Shown: positions 2,399 to 14,038 of the stretch, piece by piece | Layout: every line of letters starts with the position of its first letter | Numbering within the stretch: position 1 is the first letter of the stretch | Program-made: the position numbers and the translations under genes | The notes under the pieces: model-generated | What the model was told of the DNA's origin: nothing | Database searches by the model: none | The model's input: only the letters and a program-made list of their open reading frames with translations | Assembly (NCBI RefSeq): GCF_000317515.1 | Contig: NC_019738.1 | Location: 1,937,623-2,001,622 of the forward strand | Origin: Allocoleopsis franciscana PCC 7113 | GTDB taxonomy: Bacteria; Cyanobacteriota; Cyanobacteriia; Cyanobacteriales; Coleofasciculaceae | Direction: 5' to 3' | Length of the DNA stretch: 64,000 bases

Positions 2399-3334
2399 AT
2401 GAACACTTCAAGCTCAAACACTACATCTCTGCGTCGCCAACCCAAGCAGAAACGCAGCCAACAACGGGTTGAGCGGATTTTGGCAGCGGCGGCAGAGGTG
2501 TTTGCCTCTGTGGGTTACGAGGCAGCCACAACCCATGCGATCGCATCTCGTGCAGGAACGGCGATCGGTTCACTTTACCAGTTCTTTCCAGATAAGTTGG
2601 CGATTTTTCATGCTCTAGAAGAACGTCACATGGAGCAGGTAAGAGCCATCCACGCCAAGTTAATGACTCCCCAGATGGCTCAACAGCCACTAGAGTCTAT
2701 GGTTGAGCAGATAGTGGAGACGTTTGCTGTCTACTTCGAGCATCCGGGGCCGAAAGTCGTCTACATTCAATACTGCGTGGCTCCGGAGATGTTTAAGTAT
2801 TTCGATGAAAGTTTTAATCAATCACTCATCCAAGCGTTTGCGACGCAGTTACGACTACGAAACCCTACTCTGAGTAAGGAAAAAAGCGAACTGCTAGCTG
2901 AGGTTTGCCTTCAGTGCTATAACTCTCTGCTGTTGGTAGCCTTACGTAGTAATCGCACCCATCGCAAGCAGCTTTACGAAGAGATGCGAGAGCTATTGGT
3001 GGCTTACTTACGTCCTTATGTTGGGGATGAGGAATTACAAAATGAGGGGCAACCTCGTGCTAGAGAGTCGATTCCCTACGATGTACTTTGCCAGCAGTAC
3101 CAACTTTCTGTGCGCCAATGCCAAGCCTTAATGTTTGCGATCGCGCAGGGTGGGCTAACCATTCAGAACTTTGAGGAAATTTGCCCGGAGACTTCCCGGC
3201 GGACGCTACAGCGAGAGTTACGCCAAATGGTGGAGAAGGGTTTGCTGCTGCCTGAGGGAAAAACCAATCGGCTTTACTACCGCCTCAATCTGTTGTGGCA
3301 AGAACTTGCGTCAAGTTGCGACAAAAGAAAATAA
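2399..3334 (+). CDS. TetR-family transcriptional regulator with an extra C-terminal winged-helix-like segment
   Basis: The N-terminus QRVERILAAAAEVFASVGYEAATTHAIASRAGTAIGSLYQFF is a TetR_N HTH. The ~90-aa C-terminal tail (LSVRQCQALMFAIAQGGLTIQNFEEICPETSRRTLQRELRQMVEKGLLL) looks like a second HTH/wHTH. Confidence 0.7.
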   Translation: MNTSSSNTTSLRRQPKQKRSQQRVERILAAAAEVFASVGYEAATTHAIASRAGTAIGSLYQFFPDKLAIFHALEERHMEQVRAIHAKLMTPQMAQQPLESMVEQIVETFAVYFEHPGPKVVYIQYCVAPEMFKYFDESFNQSLIQAFATQLRLRNPTLSKEKSELLAEVCLQCYNSLLLVALRSNRTHRKQLYEEMRELLVAYLRPYVGDEELQNEGQPRARESIPYDVLCQQYQLSVRQCQALMFAIAQGGLTIQNFEEICPETSRRTLQRELRQMVEKGLLLPEGKTNRLYYRLNLLWQELASSCDKRK

Positions 3335-3454
3335 GTGTCTGTACCGACTGCTATTTTTTAGGGTTCCAGGTCTTTACTTCTGCCATTTGCCCTCTGCCTT
3401 CTACCTTGTCTCCACCAAAAAATGAATAGTTAACCCGGATTTGGTATGAGATGG

Positions 3455-3850
3455 CTAACTCAACGATTCAACCAATTTTGCCACCCGTTCCTTCACTTCA
3501 TCTCGAACACGCTGAAACGTTTCGATGGATTCCCCTTCTGGGTCATCCAGTTGCCAATCTTCAAACACCTCCCGCACAACCCAAGATTCCGGCAAGTTCA
3601 CCCCACAACCGCAGAGGGAAATCACAGCATCATACTCTTCGGGATTAAAATCACTTAACGGTTTAGAAGTTTGCTCACTAATATCAATGCCAATTTCGGA
3701 CATCACTTCAACCGTCGTCGGATCGACCTGAGAAGCTTCCAGTCCCGAACTACTAACAGCAATCTTTCCTCCTCCCAACGTCCGAGCAAATCCTTCTGCC
3801 ATCTGAGAACGGCGAGAATTTTTCTTGCATACAAACATCACTCGTTTCAT
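3455..3850 (-). CDS. arsC: Arsenate reductase, LMW-PTP/thioredoxin-glutaredoxin-coupled type (Synechocystis ArsC-like)
   Basis: MKRVMFVCKKNSRRSQMAEGF contains the CX2NSXRS P-loop. ...LCGCGVNLP...EDWQLDDPEG is near-identical in pattern to cyanobacterial ArsC. AGGAGG Shine-Dalgarno sits 8 nt upstream of the ATG at 3850 (ORF track start 3895 is an upstream extension). Confidence 0.88.
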   Translation of the reverse strand: MKRVMFVCKKNSRRSQMAEGFARTLGGGKIAVSSSGLEASQVDPTTVEVMSEIGIDISEQTSKPLSDFNPEEYDAVISLCGCGVNLPESWVVREVFEDWQLDDPEGESIETFQRVRDEVKERVAKLVESLS

Positions 3851-3994
3851 ATTTAATACCTCCTGTTGAATACTCTGCACTAGCAGAAATTTCACTCTTC
3901 AAAAACTTGTAAAATCCTTCTTCATCTCTCTTTCTTCGTTTCCTCAAAATCCTTTGTGGTTCGTTTCTTTCCAAAATCAGATAAAGTGGCAATA

Positions 3995-5149
3995 TTACCT
4001 CAACGAACCGATACACCGGGGATCGCGTAACGTAGCTTTCTCCAGTTCTCGTGGAAACCACATTGCTGTACGCTTACACACCTCCACCAGCATCAGCATG
4101 ACTGGAACTTCAATTAACACACCCACAACAGTAGCCAGTGCCGCACCCGAATTTAAACCAAACAACATAACTGATGTGGCGATCGCAACTTCAAAATGAT
4201 TACTCGCTCCAATTAGGGCGGCTGGTGCTGCATCTTCATAGGCAAGATTCAATTTCAAGGCCGCAACATAACCGATTAAGAAAATGAAATTCGTTTGGAT
4301 AAACAGGGGTACTGCAATCAACAAAATGTGCAGGGGGTTGTTGACAATCAGTTCCCCTTTAAAGGCAAATAGCAGTACCAGAGTCATCAAAAGGGCTGTA
4401 ATTGCGATCGGACTGAGATATTTGAGAAACTCTCTTTCAAACCACTCTTTGCCCTTATATTTGAGAATCCAGTAACGGCTGTACATCCCTGCGATTAAGG
4501 GCAAACCCACATAAATCAGCACCGATAGCACAATTGTCTGCCAAGGTACGGTTAAATCATTCGCTGCTAGCAACCATCTTCCCAATGGTGCATACAGAAA
4601 CAGCATCGTTAGGGAGTTCACTGCCACCATGATTAAGGTGTGCCCCTGATTGCTATAGGAAAGATAGCCCCACATCAGCACCATCGCCGTACAAGGTGCA
4701 ATTCCTAATAAAATTGTCCCGGCAATGTATGAATTGGCGAGTGCCACTTCACTACCACGAATCAACTCTGTACCCGTAATTAGAGGGCGAAATAACCAAC
4801 TCAGGAAGAATTGAGAAAATGCCACCATTGTGAACGGTTTAATCAACCAGTTCACTACTAGGGTAAGGATGACAGGTTTGGGTGCTCTGAGTGCATTTGT
4901 GGCTTGGGTAAAGTCAATCTTCACCATGATTGGATACATCATGAAGAACAGGCAGATGGCGATCGGAATGGACACTTGATAAATGCTCATCGCATCTAAG
5001 GCGATCGCAATATTTGGAAATAATCGACCCAATGCGATGCCCACGAAGATGCAGAGAAACACCCAAACGGTTAAGTATTTTTCAAAAAAGCTGAGGCTAC
5101 TCCCTGCTTGAGGAGGTAGTGCACGACCGGAAGGATTCTTGGTACTCAT
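3995..5149 (-). CDS. acr3: Arsenite efflux permease, ACR3 family
   Basis: [24 protein letters not shown] is the Acr3 N-terminal signature. Polytopic membrane protein of 384 aa, placed in an ars operon context. Confidence 0.85.
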
Positions 5150-5286
5150 TGTGAATTGTTAATTGGAATAGAATTTTTTAACGCAGAGGGACACAGAGGG
5201 ACGCGCAGAGGAACGCAGAGTTTTGGAGCAAAATTCCTGTTAATTTTGATGGCAGGGAAAACCTATCAATCCAAAATGGGTTGACT

Positions 5287-6330
5287 CTAAAATGTGGCTT
5301 GTTTGCGTAATAACTCGCCTAGTGTCAGATTTAGCTGCGTTTGTCCACCAAAAACGGTACCGACTTTGCCGCGATTGAAGTGTACTTTAGCGAGGTGGTA
5401 GCCTTCATCGGGTAGAGGGATGTAGCCAACATCATCGACTAAGGTTGGTGCTTTCTCTAAGAAGAATTCCACGAAATCTCTCACCTCTGGTTTGTTTTGG
5501 GCAGATTGGTAGTTAACGTAAATGAACATTGGACGGGAAAGGGGTTGATACCGAGTCTTCTCCACGGTTTGACGTGAGGGTAAGACGGCACCTTTGCCGC
5601 TATCGACGGCTAACGCTTTTAACTGATTCGAGTTGGCTTCGTAGTAAGCCAAACCAAAGTAACCCAACGCATTCACGTCTTGGCGCACTCCTTGTACCAG
5701 GACGTTGTCATCTTCGCTGGCGGTATAGTCGTTGCGACTGGCTTTGCTGGTACCCACTGTTGCTTCTGTGAAGTAGTCGAAGGTACCCGAATCTTTCCCT
5801 GCACCATAAAGCTTCAGGGGTCGGTCGGGCCAAGAGGAACGAACTTGATTCCATTTGGTAATTTTTCCTTCAGCAGCAGGTTCCCAAGCTTTTCTCAACT
5901 CTTCTACCGTGATGTCTTTCGCCCAGTTATTTTCAGGATGAACGACTACGGTTAGCGCATCGAAGGCAATGGGTAATTCGATGTACCGCACATTATTGCG
6001 GTTGCACAGTGCCATCTCCTGTTTGAGGATGGGGCGCGAGGCGTTGCTGATGTCGGTTAAACCTTCGCAAAATGTTTTGAAGCCACCCCCTGTACCGGAC
6101 AAGGCAAACTCAACTTTGATTTTGTCGTTGTTGGCTTTGGTTTGGGCGGCTTGATACTCAGCGGCGATCGCATTGGTGATCGGATACACCGTACTGGAAC
6201 CATCGATCTTAACGACCTGTGCTTGGCGAGACTCGGCTGGCTTGCCACATGAGGAGAGCATTGCCGCCATACCAACGATGAATGCCAACACTCCCAAACG
6301 ACTGACTAACCCATCAGTTTTCTGATTCAT
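5287..6330 (-). CDS. PstS-like periplasmic phosphate(/oxyanion)-binding lipoprotein embedded in the ars operon
   Basis: Lipobox LSSCG after a signal peptide. GSSTVYPITNAIAAEY...SGTGGGFKTF is typical of the PBP_like_2/PstS family. Start chosen at the ATG at 6330 (MNQKTDG...). Confidence 0.7.
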   Translation of the reverse strand: MNQKTDGLVSRLGVLAFIVGMAAMLSSCGKPAESRQAQVVKIDGSSTVYPITNAIAAEYQAAQTKANNDKIKVEFALSGTGGGFKTFCEGLTDISNASRPILKQEMALCNRNNVRYIELPIAFDALTVVVHPENNWAKDITVEELRKAWEPAAEGKITKWNQVRSSWPDRPLKLYGAGKDSGTFDYFTEATVGTSKASRNDYTASEDDNVLVQGVRQDVNALGYFGLAYYEANSNQLKALAVDSGKGAVLPSRQTVEKTRYQPLSRPMFIYVNYQSAQNKPEVRDFVEFFLEKAPTLVDDVGYIPLPDEGYHLAKVHFNRGKVGTVFGGQTQLNLTLGELLRKQATF

Positions 6331-6530
6331 CACTTGTTCCCCTGTTCCCTCTGGCTTGAGGCATAATTTAATCATTTCAAAAAAAATTGATTTGTCAAGC
6401 CATAAAAAAGGCAAAGAGGTTAGGAAAACTTTAAGAAAAGTTGATGGAAGGCAAAGACGCCTTGTACCAAGTTGCAGTCAAAGATGGCAGACTATTTCCC
6501 CATCTCCCCGCTCCTCAGCTCCTCTGCTGT

Positions 6531-6851
6531 TTAACAGGGACGAGCCGGAATAATCGGGCTGAAACGGCGGAACTCGGCCAGGTACTCTTCTAGTAGCAAG
6601 AACTGGGTGAGATTGAGGCTGTAGTAAATCCAGCGACCTTCTTGGCGCGATCGCACGAGTTCAGCTTCCTTGAGGTTTTTGAGATGGAATGACAACTTGG
6701 ACTGAGTCACTCCCAAGCGATCGCACAATTCACAGACGCATAACTCTTGCGATCGCAGCAGCTCGATTACCTGAATTCTCAGGGGGTCAGACAGGGCGTG
6801 AAAGCCAGAGGCGATAACATCTGAAGTGATGGCTGAAGCTTTTCCCATCAA
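6531..6851 (-). CDS. arsR: ArsR/SmtB-family metalloregulator
   Basis: ELCVCEL metal-binding motif and the HTH LSFHLKNLKEAELV. First gene of the minus-strand ars operon. Confidence 0.85.
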   Translation of the reverse strand: MMGKASAITSDVIASGFHALSDPLRIQVIELLRSQELCVCELCDRLGVTQSKLSFHLKNLKEAELVRSRQEGRWIYYSLNLTQFLLLEEYLAEFRRFSPIIPARPC

Positions 6852-6984
6852 ATTTTATTGAAACGACCTTTTCATTCTAACGGAGTGCGATTGGGGCTGA
6901 GATTCAAGACCATGGCAGTAGTTCTCCCGCCTTCTTCATCCCTAAATCGAAAAAACGAGTCGTTAATATAGAAACTATGGCAAT

Positions 6985-7332
6985 TTGAAGTACTTAACCC
7001 AACAAACAGTGGAAATAGCTTCCGAGCAAAACAATTCAAACTCAAAAAAGCGTTGTGTCCTAGTTTGCCAGCATCGGTCTTGTCTGGCGAATGGTTCAGA
7101 GGCAGTACTGGCTGCCTTTGAGGCGGCTGACTTAACGGACTTTACAGTGATGGGTACAGGTTGCCAGGGACAGTGTACCTCCGGGCCGACGGTGCGAATT
7201 GTTCCAGAAGAGACATGGTACTGGCGAGTCCAACCTAGTGATGTCCCGATCATTGTGGAGCAACATCTCAAGGGGGGCGAACCGATAGACGCGAAACTTA
7301 ACACCCGCATTCATCTGCGTTATAGCTATTAA
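6985..7332 (+). CDS. Thioredoxin-like [2Fe-2S] ferredoxin (NuoE-like fold)
   Basis: Four Cys arranged CQHRSC...GCQGQC. 115 aa. Confidence 0.6.
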   Translation: MKYLTQQTVEIASEQNNSNSKKRCVLVCQHRSCLANGSEAVLAAFEAADLTDFTVMGTGCQGQCTSGPTVRIVPEETWYWRVQPSDVPIIVEQHLKGGEPIDAKLNTRIHLRYSY

Positions 7333-7422
7333 AGAAAAATAGCTGAAACAGTATTCTTCCGACTGATGTAAGGTTGGCACAGGGCATGGTACCCTGCTCA
7401 CCAACCATTTGGGAGAAAACCA

Positions 7423-8280
7423 GTGCAAAGACTACTGATTCGTGTGGGGATTGGGGTGTTATTTGCCCTGTTTGGCATAATTACCTACTTTACTAACGTC
7501 ACTGACAACCCAGTAACGGGGGAAAAACAGCGGGTACAGCTCTCACCGCGCCAGGAAGTCGCACTTGGTATACAGGCACGGGACAGTATGGCGTCACGAC
7601 ATGGGGGTCTTTACCCGGATTCTAGACTCCAAGCCTATATCGATCAGGTGGGAGAGCGAGTGGTCAAGCAGTCGCAAGCGGCTAAAGCTCCCTATCCTTT
7701 TCAATTCCATTTGCTGCGCGACCCCAAAACCATTAATGCGTTTGCCTTACCTGGAGGACAGGTTTTTATTACAGCGGCTTTGCTCAGTCGCCTCAATTCA
7801 GAAGCACAATTGGCAGGGGTATTGGGGCATGAAGTTGGACATGTGGTGGGGCGACACGGCGCGGAACATCTGGCTAAACAGCAATTGGGGGGATCACTGG
7901 TGAATGCGGTCGGTATTGCGGCTAGTGATAATCCAGACAGTGCAAGGCAAGCGGCAGTTGTGGCGCAGGCGGTTAATCAATTGGTTAGCTTACGGTACGG
8001 GCGTGAGGATGAATTGGAAAGCGATCGCCTCGGTTTTCAGTTTATGACCACAGCCGGCTATAACCCAAAAGGGATTGTGGAACTGATGCAAATCCTCGCC
8101 TCTGCTAGACAGGGGGGGCAACAACCGGAGTTTTTAAGTAGTCACCCCGACCCTGGAAATCGAGTACAACAGCTCAATGCACTGATTGCTGATAACTTTC
8201 CCAAGGGTGTTCCTGCCAATCTCACAGAGGGACGCGAGGACTTTGCCCGCAATGTCAAGACTAGCTTACCTACTCGTTGA
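7423..8280 (+). CDS. M48-family zinc metalloprotease (BepA/YfgC-like), membrane anchored
   Basis: HEVGHVVGRH is an HEXXH motif. There is an N-terminal TM helix and a peptidase_M48 layout. Confidence 0.8.
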   Translation: MQRLLIRVGIGVLFALFGIITYFTNVTDNPVTGEKQRVQLSPRQEVALGIQARDSMASRHGGLYPDSRLQAYIDQVGERVVKQSQAAKAPYPFQFHLLRDPKTINAFALPGGQVFITAALLSRLNSEAQLAGVLGHEVGHVVGRHGAEHLAKQQLGGSLVNAVGIAASDNPDSARQAAVVAQAVNQLVSLRYGREDELESDRLGFQFMTTAGYNPKGIVELMQILASARQGGQQPEFLSSHPDPGNRVQQLNALIADNFPKGVPANLTEGREDFARNVKTSLPTR

Positions 8281-8290
8281 GGATTTGCCT

Positions 8291-9898
8291 TTAAGAACGT
8301 CCCATCAGTTTGGTAACGAGAGCCACTAATTCAGCCGCATCGACGGGTTTGGATAGGTGGAGATGGAACCCGGCAGCCAGGGCACGATCGCGGTCTTCGT
8401 CTCCAGCATAGCCCGTCAAGGCGATCGCCTTCGGCATAGCTGGGCTGAGTTGGGGGATTTCCCGTGCCTGTTCAGCAACCATTGCCTTGATTTGGCGAAT
8501 CAAATCATAGCCGTTCTGAATTGGCATACTAATATCACTGATCAGCACATCGGGTTGAAACGCGGCAAAGACGGCGATCGCCTCCTCTACCGAACACGCC
8601 GTCTTCACTTGAGCGTCATACTCTTCCAGTAAAAGTGCCATGACCTCACGAACGTCGGTTTGGTCATCCACAACCAGCACCTTCACACCGTTGAGAATAC
8701 CGGAGGGCTTCTCAGTCGCCAATTCCTGAAAAGCATCCTTGGGTGGATGACGAATGGCTAACAGGGGAAATTGGACTGTAAAAGTTGTCCCTTGTTCCTT
8801 ACCCAAACTTTCGGCTTGAACCGTGCCACCGTGAAGTTCAACCAGATGACGCACAATCGCTAACCCCAATCCCAGTCCACTATGTATACGAGTGCTGGAG
8901 CTATCTGCTTGGCGAAAGCGATCAAACACATAAGGTAAAAACTCAGGACAAATGCCAATGCCTGTGTCGCTGACAATCAAGGCAACTTTCGCTTCCCTTC
9001 GCGTCAACTGAATTTGAACTCGTCCACCTTGCGGGGTAAACTTGACCGCATTGGACAAAAGATTCCAGATAATCTGTTGCAAGCGCAGGGTATCCCCGGA
9101 AATGGAACCCGCTTCGGGGTCTAGCTTGCATTCGAGTTCAATCGCCTTAGCCTGTGCGGCGGGACGCACGGTAGAAAGAGCCGCCTCAATGACTGGAATG
9201 AGTTCGACGGGTTGCATGTTCAGGGCAAGCTTGCCGGTAACGATGCGGGAAACATCGAGTAAGTCTTCTATGATTTGCGCCAGAGACTTAGCGTTGCGCT
9301 CAATGGTTTCCGTTGCTCGTTTGTAGTCCTCATCTTTCAACCTCTGGAGTCGCAGAAGCTGCACCCAACCGTACATGGCATTCAGGGGGGTACGCAATTC
9401 ATGAGAGAGGTTAGCGAGAAACTCATCTTTGAGACGATTGGCTTCTTCGGCTTCGGCACGAGCGGCTCGTTCTTGTATCAGCAACAGATCTCGCTCTTGT
9501 TGTAAACGTTTGGCTCTTTGCCGCCATTCAGCCCGCTCCAACGCTAAGCGTACAGCGGTGGGTACTCGAATATAACGATTAGGAGCCTTGAGGATGTAAT
9601 CATCCAGCCCTGATTTCATCGCTTCCACCGCAATCTCTTCGTTGCCACTGTTGGTAAACATAATCACAGGACAGTCAGGATAGCGGGACTTAAGCTGCTT
9701 GAGTACGGTAAGTCCATCACTCCAGCCCAGTTGATAGTCGGTTATGACTATATCAAAGCCCCCTTGATCCATCGCTTGTGCCAAGACTTTGGTATTAATA
9801 ATTTCTGTAACCTGAAGTTCTGTAAATTCTCGCTCCAACTCGCGAATAATTAACAGGCGGTCAGTCGGATTGTCATCAATGACAAGAATGTAGGGCAT
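8291..9898 (-). CDS. Hybrid sensor histidine kinase (REC - HisKA - HATPase - REC)
   Basis: N-terminal receiver MPYILVIDDNPTDRLL. H-box LSHELRTPLNAM. ATPase G-boxes SDTGIGI...GLGLAIV. C-terminal receiver VLVVDDQTDVREV. Confidence 0.85.
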   Translation of the reverse strand: MPYILVIDDNPTDRLLIIRELEREFTELQVTEIINTKVLAQAMDQGGFDIVITDYQLGWSDGLTVLKQLKSRYPDCPVIMFTNSGNEEIAVEAMKSGLDDYILKAPNRYIRVPTAVRLALERAEWRQRAKRLQQERDLLLIQERAARAEAEEANRLKDEFLANLSHELRTPLNAMYGWVQLLRLQRLKDEDYKRATETIERNAKSLAQIIEDLLDVSRIVTGKLALNMQPVELIPVIEAALSTVRPAAQAKAIELECKLDPEAGSISGDTLRLQQIIWNLLSNAVKFTPQGGRVQIQLTRREAKVALIVSDTGIGICPEFLPYVFDRFRQADSSSTRIHSGLGLGLAIVRHLVELHGGTVQAESLGKEQGTTFTVQFPLLAIRHPPKDAFQELATEKPSGILNGVKVLVVDDQTDVREVMALLLEEYDAQVKTACSVEEAIAVFAAFQPDVLISDISMPIQNGYDLIRQIKAMVAEQAREIPQLSPAMPKAIALTGYAGDEDRDRALAAGFHLHLSKPVDAAELVALVTKLMGRS

Positions 9899-9976
9899 CG
9901 GCTTTGTCAGGAGTGTTCAAGCTGCCGTTTAGCAAGGCGCTTGAATCAATAGTTCTCAAACACGATAAAATAAGCA

Positions 9977-10423
9977 CTAACTATACTGAAATTCAGGCGG
10001 TTCATTGAGCATTAGCCAGTATAGGTTAAGAGTCCTCAACATTTCTACTAAAGCCGTGAAACCAATCGGTTTGACTAAATAGGAATTAACCCCTAAATCA
10101 TAAGATTGGTTGACATCAAGGGTTTCCCTGGAAGACGTCAACATAATCACCGGCAGGCGTTTGAGGTCGGGTTGCTGTCGTATCCATTCTAGGACTTCAT
10201 GACCTGAGCGGCGGGGAAGCTTTAGGTCTAGTAACATAAGCATGGGCAGGGGGTAGCATTCTCGGTCTGAGTATTCTCCTTCACCACTGAGGTAGAGAAC
10301 CGCTGCATCTCCATCTCTAACGATTTGTAGGGAAATATGGGATAAATCGGCTTGACGAAAGGCACGTTGAATTAGAAGAATATCAGCAGGATTATCTTCT
10401 ACGATCAAAATTGTCTGTGTCAT
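9977..10423 (-). CDS. Single-domain CheY-like response regulator
   Basis: MTQTILIVEDNPADILLIQRAF...LDLKLP is a receiver domain with no output domain. Confidence 0.8.
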   Translation of the reverse strand: MTQTILIVEDNPADILLIQRAFRQADLSHISLQIVRDGDAAVLYLSGEGEYSDRECYPLPMLMLLDLKLPRRSGHEVLEWIRQQPDLKRLPVIMLTSSRETLDVNQSYDLGVNSYLVKPIGFTALVEMLRTLNLYWLMLNEPPEFQYS

Positions 10424-10793
10424 CCTTCTTAAGACATCTTCATTAGCTTAACTTCAGCCTAGGAGATGTCAGCTCATTTGCTAAACATGTCTCGTTTTGT
10501 ACAGGAATACTCAACTTGACCCCAAATCGACTGCCTTGACCGAGTTGAAATTCTACTCTGACTCTGTCCCTGATCGGTTTAATCCCTTTCTCCATCTTCT
10601 TCCATCTTTCCCTACCATGACTCATCGCACCCCATTGGATTACATGTCCACTAGAGTTGAGCATGTAATCTTAATGTCAAGCAATTTTAGCCCAAATGAA
10701 AGGCGTAAATTTCTTAATTTAATTCTCTGTTAATAGCTCTCAAATAAACCATATTTTTTTTGATTGATTGTTGACGAAAATCCTTCTTGAGCT

Positions 10794-11237
10794 TTATCGG
10801 TTTGCCATCGGCTCTTTAACATTATGGAGAGTGGAATCCAGCTCTTCAATTTCTGGTTCAGTAGCCTGAAGATGTTTCTCTAAAATGGCTAGATTGCGGA
10901 TATTCGACTTGTAATAAGCGTCGAACAGGTCACCAACCAGAGGTACTGTACCCACAACGGCTTCTAGACCAATATTCAATATCATTTTCTGGATATCTTT
11001 ACTGGGAATACCGAGGCGAGTTGCTAGATAAATAATGTAAGCCGAAAAAGATGTACTAATTAAGTCCCCTGCACCCGGTATTAGACCGATAATTGGGTCT
11101 AACCCAATACGAAATTTGGTGCCAGGGATACCAATGGCTGTATCCATCAAGCGGCTGAGCTTGCGGATACGATTAAGAGTTGCTACACGTTCTAGAGTAT
11201 TCATAAAAGTAATAGTGGCACAGATTAATCCGCCCAC
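10794..11237 (-). CDS. DUF4112 family membrane-associated protein
   Basis: AIGIPGTKFRIGLDPIIGLIPGAGDLIS...VPLVGDLFDAYYKSNIRN matches the DUF4112 conserved core. Confidence 0.6.
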   Translation of the reverse strand: MGGLICATITFMNTLERVATLNRIRKLSRLMDTAIGIPGTKFRIGLDPIIGLIPGAGDLISTSFSAYIIYLATRLGIPSKDIQKMILNIGLEAVVGTVPLVGDLFDAYYKSNIRNLAILEKHLQATEPEIEELDSTLHNVKEPMANR

Positions 11238-12070
11238 CTTTCTACCCGAAGAATGAATTTAGCACCAGTAGGAAGGGTGAAGCACAACACAACTATCATC
11301 TCCAGGTTGATTAATCTTTAGTATTAAACTGATTAATCTTTAATATTAAACAAGTATATAGGGCGAAGAGGCGAAAAATCGGGTTTCAAGGCTGGGCTTT
11401 GGCACCTGAATACGGGCTTAACAATTCGAGAGGTTTGCTTTTCTTTTTTTTATATTTTCTTTATTATTTTAGTTCATAGATTCAGGTAAAATAGCTTATT
11501 TTAAATTCAAGAAATAACAATAGTTTAGCCAATTCCATCTAAAGAATGACTGGGATTCTGCCTCTAGAGTGAGAAAGAAATGACGAAAAAATTGGTAACT
11601 TTAGAGACGAAAAGAAAAGGTACTGGATGGGAGTTTAACCGCTGCGACCCATAGTTGTACATCAAAACAGAGCGATGTTAGATGTACAAACAGTGCATAT
11701 AGTTAGCTGACATCAACGGTGTGGAGTTTCTATCGATTTCTCCACTTTGTAACTACCGATGAGGGACTAAAATTCCCAGCAGAGCGGTCATTGGTAGGAG
11801 ACGTAAGGATGTCATCATAAAAACGCAATTAAGACGCCCATTCCGTCTTGGCTCAACTTGGCCCAAGGCGGAATGGCCGTATCAGGGAAAACAGATGTTA
11901 ATCAGGGAGCGTCTAAGCTGTTACGCATCTAATTTGCTTGTTGAGGCGGCGGGGGAGCAGAGCCGGAGCTCATACGAGGACAGAGGAGCGGATGTGAACT
12001 GTTTTATCCTGTGTTGAGAATGTGCAAGTTAAATGCGCTTTAGCTTACAAATGTTTAAATGCGCGATCGC

Positions 12071-12799
12071 TTATGCATGAATTCGACCATCAGGTAAGAT
12101 AGCTCCAGACAAATTGGCTCCTGTTAATTTGACCAAAATTCGATCGCCAGACCCAATTTTAGCCCCCCTTAAGTCAGCGCCACTTAAATCAGCGCCACTC
12201 AAATCGGCTCCAATTAAGTTAGCCTCTCTTAAATTAGCTTGATTCAGGTTCGCTTGAAAGAGATTCGCTCTAAAAAGATTTGCCTTTTCCAAATTCGCTC
12301 CCTGAAGATTAACCTTATGCAAAAAACTATCACTTAAGTTGGCATTACTGAGATTGGCATGACTCAAATTGCGTCCTGACAAATCTTTTTCTTTTAAGTC
12401 AACACCTCGAAAGTCAGCTCCACTCAAATCAGGATTGGGCGTTCGAGTTTGGGAGGAAGATTGCGATCGCGATTGTGCAGTCGTTTCCCTTTGGGAGTAT
12501 CGCGGTTGGGAGCGGGGTGGTGTATATTGAGCTCGTTGCGGTGCAGGAGAAGGCGATCGCGTAGTTTGTGCTGTTGGCTTGTGACCCTTGCGTCGAGCTA
12601 AACGCAACTGATCGCGAGCGTGATTAATCTCCTTGAGTTTTTCCGCCGCTTTTTCCCGCAGCCGAGAATTATCGCTTGGGACGCGATCAGGATGCCAAAT
12701 AAACGCCAAATCTTTATAAGCCTGGTTCACCTCTTCGAGAGAGGCTCCCGGCTCTAACCCCAATATTCTATAGCAATGATCTAGCTCGTTCATCACCAC
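12071..12799 (-). CDS. J-domain protein with C-terminal pentapeptide repeats
   Basis: DnaJ domain CYRILGLEPGASLEEVNQAYKDLAFIWHPDR with an HPD motif. A Ser/Thr/Pro/Gln-rich linker follows, then more than 15 A(N/D)LSx pentapeptide repeats. Confidence 0.8.
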   Translation of the reverse strand: MVMNELDHCYRILGLEPGASLEEVNQAYKDLAFIWHPDRVPSDNSRLREKAAEKLKEINHARDQLRLARRKGHKPTAQTTRSPSPAPQRAQYTPPRSQPRYSQRETTAQSRSQSSSQTRTPNPDLSGADFRGVDLKEKDLSGRNLSHANLSNANLSDSFLHKVNLQGANLEKANLFRANLFQANLNQANLREANLIGADLSGADLSGADLRGAKIGSGDRILVKLTGANLSGAILPDGRIHA

Positions 12800-13354
12800 C
12801 TTCCTTAAACCGCCTCAACACTAGGCTCCAATCATCTGTGCCACAATCTTGCCTAAATTCATCACCCCAGGTAATCCTGCACCCGGATGAGTTCCCGCAC
12901 CAACTCAGTAGAGATTGGGTAGATTTTCCACTGGGGTTGGGGAGCATCTCAAATGTACACATTTAAACAAAGGGAAGGAAAATTGATCCCTAAATACATA
13001 CTCCTCAGCTCCTTAGCTCCTCCGCTCCTCCGCTCCCCCCAAGTAACTATTCACAGTATCGCGGAAGTGCAGGGAATCAATAGAGTGTTCTGTAACGATA
13101 TGTTGAGTTCAGGAAGCTCCACTCCCCCCACTCTCCCAATCAAAGAGGCATTAGCCTCTATCCAACTAAGGGAAGTTGGGTACTGCTGTTGTAGTGTGGT
13201 GTAATGGAAGCGTAGGGGTTTCCCAGTATAGCGACCAGCCGTAGTTGATTCAAAACTCAGTTGGTACCGAGGCTGGGGAATCTTATATAGCATTACGCTA
13301 GTTTTTGACTGTCACGGCTCTTGCATCCTCAGACTCTATCTTTAAAAACCTTTC

Positions 13355-14038
13355 ATGCAGACTAAAGCTTTTAATGAGCTTTTCCCACTGTTTAATACGG
13401 CTAACCCAGAGACATTAGAATGGCTCCTGTCTGTTGTAGTCGAACACGAGTATCCGGCAGGGAGAGCGGTTCTCATGGAAGATGCCTGGGGCAACGCAGT
13501 TTACTTTGTTGTCTCCGGCTGGGTGAAAGTACGACGCCTTTATGGAGAAAACGTTGTGACTCTAGCAATTTTGGGTCAGGGTGATTTTTTTGGGGAAATG
13601 GCAATTCTCGATGAATCTCCCCGCTCAACCGATGTTCTTGCCCTTTCTGACGTAAAATTACTCAGCGTCTCTGCCCAACGCTTCATTCAAACCCTGTTTA
13701 AAGACCCTCAATTACACCATCGCATGTTGCAACTGATGGTGCGGCGGCTACGTCAAACCAACATCCGCCTGCAACGACGCCATCAGCCACCCGCTGTCAA
13801 GTTAGTCAGTACGTTGGTTAGCTTGGCAGAAAACTATGGTCAACCCACAGAAAAGGGAACAGAAATCTTTAACTTCCCCTATAAAGACTTGGCAGATATT
13901 TCAGACATCAGTGCCGACGATACCGCCAAAATTATGGACAAGCTCGATAGTAAGGGCTGGATTAACATTGACCCGGAAAATCAGACACTGTGCCTACTCA
14001 ATATCAAGCAACTGGCTCATTTGGCAGGACGTGTTTAG
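13355..14038 (+). CDS. Crp/Fnr-family transcriptional regulator (cNMP-binding plus C-terminal HTH)
   Basis: GDFFGEMAIL cyclic-nucleotide-binding signature. C-terminal HTH YKDLADISDISADDTAKIMDKL. Confidence 0.8.
   Translation: MQTKAFNELFPLFNTANPETLEWLLSVVVEHEYPAGRAVLMEDAWGNAVYFVVSGWVKVRRLYGENVVTLAILGQGDFFGEMAILDESPRSTDVLALSDVKLLSVSAQRFIQTLFKDPQLHHRMLQLMVRRLRQTNIRLQRRHQPPAVKLVSTLVSLAENYGQPTEKGTEIFNFPYKDLADISDISADDTAKIMDKLDSKGWINIDPENQTLCLLNIKQLAHLAGRV

Follow-up and report, generated by a model that had tools for sequence, protein, structure and literature searches.

Why should a gene for a phosphate-type binding protein stand within an arsenic detoxification operon? The question is raised by a stretch of 64,000 nucleotides from the cyanobacterium Allocoleopsis franciscana PCC 7113 (contig NC_019738.1, positions 1,937,623 to 2,001,622), here called the window, in which four open reading frames (ORFs) lie in series on the minus strand at 3455–6851: arsR, a gene for a PstS-family lipoprotein, acr3, and arsC. 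An earlier note on this DNA had proposed these gene identities and this order, which are confirmed by the ORFs and by profile searches. It had also assigned the binding protein to the arsenic system, and this assignment is borne out by arsR synteny in 19–20 species and by a palindrome shared among the loci. The elements of an ArsR-controlled ars operon are present, namely an ArsR with an As(III) Cys motif, an efflux pump, and an arsenate reductase. Overall, we consider it very probable that the window protein is an S-type (SphX-like) PstS belonging to the ArsR regulon.

The binding protein has thousands of relatives, and the best 120 are all 62–98% identical to it; all those among them with an organism name come from filamentous cyanobacteria. 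A scan of one genome per species gave 80 loci (cited below by L numbers), which we have searched with the window proteins. In 19–20 species-level cyanobacterial genomes arsR lies directly upstream of the pstS-like gene, with acr3 and/or arsC downstream in most loci of sufficient length, and the genes called independently on two further contigs show this layout too. The arsR-pstS pairing is not a chance juxtaposition. After the neighbouring ORFs were clustered and annotated, the loci show a constant arsR-pstS head and a variable cargo, which includes acr3, arsH, arsC, a MIP channel, GAPDH with ArsJ, ArsI, the arsenosugar proteins ArsM/ArsS, and a DSP-type phosphatase. Every related locus that is long enough also has a module specific for As(V), namely arsC or GAPDH-arsJ. 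For example, the order in Microcoleus vaginatus is arsR-pstS-MIP-arsH-arsC-arsS, and the closest long relative (80% identity) has the same flanking M48 peptidase and 2Fe-2S ferredoxin genes as the window, while its operon is extended by arsI, arsM, and arsS, at the place where the window has a TetR-family regulator gene.

Such clusters have been noticed before. Voss et al. 2013 listed arsR, SphX, GAPDH, MFS, acr3, and arsH together in Nodularia (PMC3610870). Huertas et al. 2014 described PstS, Gap3, an MFS transporter, and a glyoxalase accompanying arsB(ACR3) and arsC in several cyanobacteria, with arsR often upstream of PstS, whose function "remains to be determined" (PMC4284471); the association appears again in a 2022 preprint by this group, with the function still to be determined. 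The clusters of Nodularia spumigena (nsp33490-nsp33550), Anabaena PCC 7120 (alr1094-alr1095), and Fig. 4 of Huertas et al. 2014 share the arsR-pstS head, the arsenic cargo, and the protein clade with the window, and alr1094-alr1095 also has the same upstream palindrome. They differ from it in cargo, since the window carries acr3-arsC only, without the GAPDH-arsJ, arsH, or arsI/arsM/arsS of its relatives. That the layout is non-canonical, as the earlier note had it, holds against the textbook arsRBC/arsBHC orders, but not among cyanobacteria, where it is conserved and published (PMC3610870, PMC4284471). The arrangement of the genes, which is real and conserved, had been described before, and the window is a further instance with minimal cargo. 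The S-type class of the protein and the operator were not identified in the published work on these clusters.

We have then asked what type of PstS this is. The binding protein scores 284.9 bits with TIGR02136 (ptsS_2; cutoff 206.6) and 115 bits with PBP_like_2, whereas it reaches only 48 bits with TIGR00975, the E. coli-type equivalog (cutoff 205), with which three D-type reference PstS from the fetched loci score 316–405 bits. The lipobox and the PBP_like_2 signature given in the earlier note are both found: the N-terminus MNQKTDGLVSRLGVLAFIVGMAAMLSS-C28 is a lipoprotein signal, with the lipobox M-A-A-M-L-S-S-C28 after a hydrophobic stretch, and a lipobox-type Cys is present in 21–22 of the 28 members of the ars-linked PstS clade. 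A phosphonate- or arsenite-binding identity of the PhnD/AioX type was rejected, since Pfam gives only PBP_like_2 and PBP_like. The closest solved structure is 4JWO (E = 1e-77). Among the relatives in the PDB, the P. aeruginosa, C. perfringens, and Sll0540 proteins are S-type, 4JWO, 9JWY, and 4N13 are unclassified phosphate-binding proteins, and none is a known D-type.

According to a 2026 structural study (PMC13614923), D-type PstS proteins hold phosphate through a low-barrier hydrogen bond from an Asp, with nanomolar affinity and high discrimination against arsenate, while S-type proteins have a Ser at the Asp position, use an Asp-Arg-Thr triad, and bind with lower affinity. In the window protein, the SphX residues T45, S63, D89, S146-G147-T148, D173, and R231 correspond to T80, S98, D124, S181-G182-T183, D208, and R266 at a constant offset of +35, and S15, S16, and T17 correspond to S45, S46, and T47 at an offset of +30 (numbering from PMC13614923). 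The Asp-Arg-Thr triad is formed by D124, R266, and T47, and the Ser/Thr anion-binding loops are present. Where co-aligned D-type PstS (L012, L017, L034) have an Asp and an Arg, the window protein has S98 and A177, to which S63/P142 of SphX correspond at a constant numbering offset. These pocket assignments rest on sequence landmarks and the alignment with 4JWO; an AlphaFold2 model from a 15-sequence alignment was poor (mean pLDDT 55, domain II below 50). By these landmarks, the ars-linked binding protein is an S-type (SphX-like) PstS.

Among characterised proteins, the window protein shares the Ser position, the Asp-Arg-Thr triad, and the Ser/Thr binding loops with Synechocystis SphX (sll0679; PDB 9WP7), although SphX heads the Pho-regulated pst1 operon beside pstS1CAB, while the window protein is ars-linked and has no adjacent permease. 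Unlike SphX, it has an Arg (R99) beside the Ser, as do C. perfringens PBP-1 and Sll0540, in whose dehydrated S-type sites the Arg neutralises the anion. PBP-1 (PDB 4Q8R), a sequence relative (E = 1.5e-14), has an S-type pocket without the low-barrier hydrogen bond. The D-type proteins E. coli PstS, PfluDING, and Halomonas GFAJ-1 PBP-2 have the same superfamily fold and ligand class, but the window protein lacks their discriminating Asp and pocket Arg and fails TIGR00975.

These results bear directly on the proposal, made in the earlier note and also among the options of Huertas et al. 2014, that under arsenate stress the protein serves as a highly selective PstS isoform that is insensitive to arsenate. 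Such a role would make sense in an ars context, where phosphate uptake needs protection, and the second-shell differences at positions 89, 179, and 209 might in principle adjust selectivity. However, the protein has neither the Asp of the low-barrier hydrogen bond (S98 instead) nor the D-type Arg (A177 instead), and its TIGR00975 score is far below the cutoff (48 vs 205). The phosphate affinity of SphX is 26-fold below that of the D-type PstS1. In addition, the S-type protein that has been tested is the least selective PstS known: phosphate over arsenate discrimination is ~150-fold for C. perfringens PBP-1, the only S-type measured, and more than 500-fold for D-type proteins (PMC5381212). The ~150-fold value, which comes from a protein for housekeeping phosphate uptake in a Gram-positive organism, is extrapolated to the window protein here. 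As the pocket is unchanged and the protein appears to be S-type, it is unlikely to be an isoform blind to arsenate; the high-selectivity scavenger is the reading least compatible with the pocket type, and we hold it to be highly improbable.

That the pocket is unchanged follows from comparison with transport proteins. When 78 proteins from the loci are placed in a neighbour-joining tree, the ars-linked cyanobacterial PstS fall into one clade, only few members of which have no ars genes adjacent. Its sister comprises S-type PstS heading pstSCAB-phoU operons in Nitrospira, Burkholderiales, Nitrosomonadaceae, and others, which are 52–60% identical to the window protein. The first-shell pocket residues are 100% identical between 28 ars-linked and 38 pstSCAB-phoU-linked sequences, and in the window protein, where the earlier note had advised inspecting the anion-binding site, all of them are intact. 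The pocket thus appears generic, with no sign of remodelling for arsenic. Identity of the first shell implies that the ars-linked protein would share its ligands with the binding proteins of functioning phosphate transport. Arsenate binding by the window protein is plausible.

A function in handling arsenate itself has also to be considered, in which the protein would mainly capture As(V) and deliver it through PstCAB on purpose. The arsenate would then be reduced and exported by ArsC/Acr3, exported as 1-arseno-3-phosphoglycerate through GAPDH/ArsJ, or used by ArsM/ArsS in a phosphorus-sparing synthesis of arsenosugars and arsenolipids. The S-type pocket without the discriminating Asp fits this function, as do the As(V)-specific module of every sufficiently long related locus and the fact that the closest relatives have arsM, arsS, and arsI within this cluster; As(V) import has also been proposed for the arsenic-induced PstS1/Pst1 of A. 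tumefaciens (PMC7533571). On the other hand, the first shell is that of an ordinary phosphate-transport PstS, so phosphate should win ~100-fold, there is no obvious benefit in importing a toxin to detoxify it, and the ars operon of the window has no arsM, arsS, or arsJ. We regard this function as unlikely.

A probable link of the gene to arsenic is seen in its promoter. A promoter scan found only one sigma-70-like site on the relevant strand, inside the arsR-pstS spacer, with 10 of 12 matches plus the TG of an extended −10 element (Table 1). The whole space between its −35 and −10 elements is filled by a palindrome, which in the alignment of spacers from 19 genomes reads CTTGACAAATCAATTTTTTTTGAAATGAT in the window and has the consensus ATCAA-N6-TTGA(T/A). 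The palindrome is found in all 19 arsR-pstS spacers, often twice, giving 31 sites in 3.3 kb; this density of 9.3 per kb compares with 0.10 per kb over the 941 kb of fetched loci, i.e., ~90-fold enrichment. A weaker distal copy in the window spacer has an equivalent in 12 of the 19 related spacers. A further copy, an exact ATCAA-N6-TTGA match, overlaps the arsR start codon and may be an autoregulatory ArsR operator. By chance, the 64 kb should contain only 1.2 exact matches.

The distribution of the palindrome outside these spacers follows the ars genes. It stands 11 nt before the arsR ORF start in L010, L013, L015, and L022, and upstream of acr3 (L012, L014), of MIP (L013, L027), and of GAPDH-arsJ (L020, L021, L025); it is also found upstream of clade pstS genes without an adjacent arsR (L018, L019, L020, L021). 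The non-cyanobacterial pstSCAB loci are essentially free of it, and the few genic matches inside pstS are codons for I-K-I-D. In the window, no copy with at most two mismatches was found upstream of acr3 or arsC. Because the palindrome is found at arsR starts and in front of further ars genes as well, we consider ATCAA-N6-TTGA a probable ArsR operator of a cyanobacterial ars regulon. The window ArsR matches HTH_5 (63 bits) and NF033788 (98 bits) and contains ELCVCELC, which we take to be the classical type-1 As(III) site, after R773 ArsR; 17 of the 20 ArsR homologues encoded nearby share a CVC(D/E)LC motif.

Alternatively, the gene could be an ordinary sphX under Pho control that happens to adjoin the ars genes, and two observations seem to favour this reading. 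Su et al. 2007 scored Pho boxes upstream of Anabaena alr1094-alr1095 (sphX-gap3), with the sequence CTTTACTAataCATCAACTtttATTGATGA (PMC1906773), and alr1094 is the probable orthologue of the window binding protein; moreover, two-box Pho matches with one or two mismatches are present in L012, L014, L027, and L037. However, the 2007 boxes at alr1094-alr1095 and at A. variabilis Ava_3716 (…CATCAACTtttATTGATGA) coincide with the ATCAA-N6-TTGAT palindrome, and are probably a mis-assigned ArsR operator rather than SphR sites. When we searched the window spacer for tandem PyTTAAPyPy(T/A) with an 11-bp period, the best two-box match had 3 mismatches, and 46 of 300 shuffles did as well; the −35 element of the pstS promoter is the consensus TTGACA rather than a Pho box. 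Expression points in the same direction, as alr1094 barely responds to phosphate status: upon phosphate refeeding of Nostoc PCC 7118 the log2 changes were −0.46 for alr1094, −3.74 for pstS1, and −5.43 for all0917 (PMC7564538 supplement). Together with the arsR synteny across ~20 species, these results effectively exclude a chance neighbour from the Pho regulon, which we regard as extremely improbable. In L012 and L014, where the gene is next to pstCAB, good Pho-box pairs stand beside the ars palindrome, and these two genomes may have dual control by arsenic and phosphate. The literature on Trichodesmium SphX concerns a Pho-responsive protein and is not informative for the ars-linked clade.

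Whether the binding-protein gene is transcribed apart from its neighbours was a further point of the earlier note, which had named an independent promoter together with a separating terminator as evidence against a common operon. A conserved promoter of its own does precede the gene, but this promoter carries the ars palindrome, and no separating terminator was found. A terminator scan of the minus strand gave none, the pstS-acr3 spacer folds no better than its shuffles (z = −0.05), and an Rfam scan of 3000–7600 at E ≤ 1 gave no match. The intergenic gaps are 200 nt for arsR-pstS, 137 nt for pstS-acr3, and 145 nt for acr3-arsC, while in several relatives the pstS-acr3 gap is only 28–46 nt. Likely, as far as can be judged from this arrangement, pstS, acr3, and arsC are co-transcribed from the pstS promoter. 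The pstS-acr3 spacer also contains a short tandem repeat (Table 1), in which no structure, terminator, or operator is predicted.

For what purpose, then, would arsenic induce an S-type PstS? The function that we propose, and to which we give about an even chance of being right, is that of an arsenite-induced, Pho-independent auxiliary binding protein which feeds the housekeeping PstCAB with additional phosphate. Without arsenic, ArsR would occupy the ATCAA-N6-TTGA palindromes in the spacer of the pstS promoter and over the arsR start. Cytoplasmic As(III), from ArsC-reduced arsenate or from arsenite entry, would bind the CVCxxC motif of ArsR and the repressor would leave, so that pstS-acr3-arsC would be transcribed, probably as one unit. 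The extra binding protein would capture phosphate, and some arsenate, and pass it to a PstCAB permease encoded elsewhere. Phosphate influx would then rise without induction of the Pho regulon and the intracellular phosphate:arsenate ratio would be restored, while ArsC and Acr3 would remove the arsenate that had entered. The protein type, the intact pocket, the export and lipid anchor, the promoter-palindrome architecture, the synteny, and the lack of a significant Pho box support this model at the level of sequence. What we infer is that ArsR binds the palindrome, that arsenic induces the genes and that these are co-transcribed, that the protein docks on PstCA, and that the cell benefits.

A precedent for ArsR control of pstS exists in A. 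tumefaciens, where ArsR1 represses an As(III)-inducible pstS1/pst1 locus (PMC7965956). This pstS1/phoB1-pst1 locus beside ars1/aio is likewise ArsR-controlled, As(III)-induced, and set apart from the formal phosphate-stress locus. It differs from the window in that it holds a whole pstSCAB-phoU-phoB set tied to arsenite oxidation, while the window has a lone binding protein; furthermore, the ArsR1 motifs are different and far from the promoter, while the putative operator of the window lies inside it. A link to Pst transport is also supported by the loci L012, L014, and L021, the only three related ones in which pstCAB adjoins the ars operon. In L012 (Laspinema sp. D2d, 6579–13500) the genes on one strand are arsR, S-type pstS, acr3, arsC, D-type pstS (TIGR00975 405 bits), pstC, pstA, and pstB.

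Several points weigh against phosphate top-up. An S-type protein is expected to discriminate against arsenate only ~10^2-fold; more of it means more arsenate uptake, and the benefit is thus not self-evident. In Synechocystis, arsenic leads to repression of the pst genes. Neither the operon nor the rest of the window encodes a permease or ATPase: a homologue search of the 64 kb found no pstC/A/B and no phoU, as well as no arsH, arsJ, GAPDH, MIP, or arsS. A literature search found no experimental study (binding, expression, or mutant) of any member of the ars-linked PstS clade. Finally, docking may be altered, as some of the positions that separate the clade from its sister group adjoin the PstA/PstC docking residues.

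The separating positions are the following. The ars-linked group has I at position 55, A at 89, and G at 302, where the pstSCAB-linked group has V, R, and K. More loosely, position 85 is variable in the ars-linked group and K in the other, 179 is K against A/S, and 209 is E/D against N; the window protein itself has E89, K179, and N209. In a 2026 cryo-EM study of E. coli PstS, K43, N48, T49, and K175 contact PstA/PstC (PMC12976172). With an offset of −42, positions 85 and 89 fall at or next to K43, N48, and T49, and 209 lies at a distance of three residues from K175. In the ars-linked clade it may be the docking surface, rather than the pocket, that has diverged; this is a lead only, as the mapping is a sequence offset to a distant D-type protein with ~5 positions (rough chance about 0.03).

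Such a change would suit a periplasmic sink or decoy, in which the tethered protein binds arsenate and phosphate without productively feeding a permease. It would buffer periplasmic As(V), or compete with the housekeeping PstS for PstCA and so lower arsenate influx. Besides the changes at 85, 89 (K/R lost), and 209, this is favoured by the missing cognate permease in most loci and in the window, by the promoter-proximal place of the gene behind a near-consensus promoter, by the lipobox-type Cys kept in most of the clade, and by the Nostocales that have two or three tandem copies with several putative operators each. But a stoichiometric sink cannot handle continuous exposure, the docking evidence has the limits just given, and in some loci the gene stands right beside pstCAB. 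Taken together, we consider a sink or decoy function distinctly unlikely, and its stricter form, in which the whole ars-linked clade is no longer a transport partner but an arsenite-induced decoy or sink with a generic pocket and a changed PstA/PstC docking surface, very unlikely. If it were true, arsenic would be resisted before it is taken up, by a mechanism different from reduction, efflux, and methylation.

The multi-copy loci of Nostocales (L013 5214–8048, L020 119–8047, L005 222–1547) contain two to three ars-type pstS copies, each with up to four upstream palindromes, which suggests that the dosage of ars-type PstS matters.

The features of the window are collected in Table 1. The start codons are most likely ATG 6848 for arsR, ATG 3850 for arsC, and, for the PstS-family gene, ATG 6330 behind the ribosome-binding-like sequences GAGGGA/AGGGGA; the mechanical ORF start of the latter, TTG 6414, lies upstream of the conserved pstS promoter, and ATG 6330 is preferred.

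Table 1 Features of the ars operon and its flanks in the window (positions within the 64,000 nucleotides).
Feature	Position	Strand	Description
arsR	6531..6848	minus	ArsR/SmtB repressor, 105 aa; ELCVCELC, presumed type-1 As(III) site
PstS-family gene	5287..6330	minus	Predicted S-type (SphX-like) phosphate/arsenate-binding lipoprotein, 347 aa; lipobox Cys28
Pocket residues of the PstS-family protein			S45 S46 T47, T80, S98 R99, D124, S181 G182 T183, D208, R266
acr3	3995..5149	minus	Arsenite efflux permease, 384 aa; TIGR00832 418 bits, SBF 170 bits
arsC	3455..3850	minus	LMW-PTPase-fold arsenate reductase, glutathione/glutaredoxin type, 131 aa; TIGR02689 237 bits
pstS promoter	6371..6398	minus	−35 TTGACA, 16-nt spacer, TG-extended −10 AATGAT
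Proximal palindrome	6376-6391		ATCAATTTTTTTTGAA; fills the whole −35/−10 spacer of the pstS promoter
Distal weaker palindrome	6430..6445		ATCAACTTTTCTTAAA as read on the minus strand; in the arsR-pstS spacer
Palindrome at the arsR start	6847..6862		ATCAAATTTTATTGAA; overlaps the arsR start codon; putative autoregulatory ArsR operator
Short tandem repeat	5180..5220	minus	~CCCTCTGCG, 3-4 copies, period 10-12; in the 137-nt pstS-acr3 spacer
TetR-family regulator gene	2399-3334	plus	TetR_N + TetR_C_15; convergent on arsC
Flank with the 2Fe-2S ferredoxin gene	6985-8280	plus	Thioredoxin-like ferredoxin, divergent from arsR; M48 peptidase gene beyond it

At the flanks, the TetR-family regulator gene marks the end of the ars operon and encodes an extra C-terminal region of ~105 aa without a Pfam match, while an M48 peptidase gene lies beyond the ferredoxin gene. 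Ferredoxin and M48 peptidase genes also flank the ars operon in L008 and L081, in the latter with a response-regulator gene between. The chromosomal position of the ars operon is conserved, with small differences in the content of the flanks. In addition, a dual-specificity/PTP-type Cys phosphatase of ~155 aa (PF22785, PF00782) recurs in the ars operons of L001, L009, L010, L015, L021, L025, L027, and L034 (example coordinates: L020 2835–3302); it could be another type of arsenate reductase or have a phosphoester-related function.

What is new in this work is the S-type assignment, the identity of the pocket with that of transport PstS, the promoter-embedded palindrome common to ars genes, and the reinterpretation of the Pho boxes. 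The palindrome is a candidate marker of the ArsR regulon in cyanobacteria, and with it the Pho boxes of Anabaena, which were probably mis-assigned, can be corrected. How toxic arsenate is depends on its competition with phosphate at uptake, and the known ars systems act only once arsenic is inside the cell. As pstS is the most consistently operator-linked and promoter-proximal ars gene, our results suggest that cyanobacteria also adjust the uptake step to arsenic, whether the binding protein serves phosphate top-up, arsenate import, or as a decoy.

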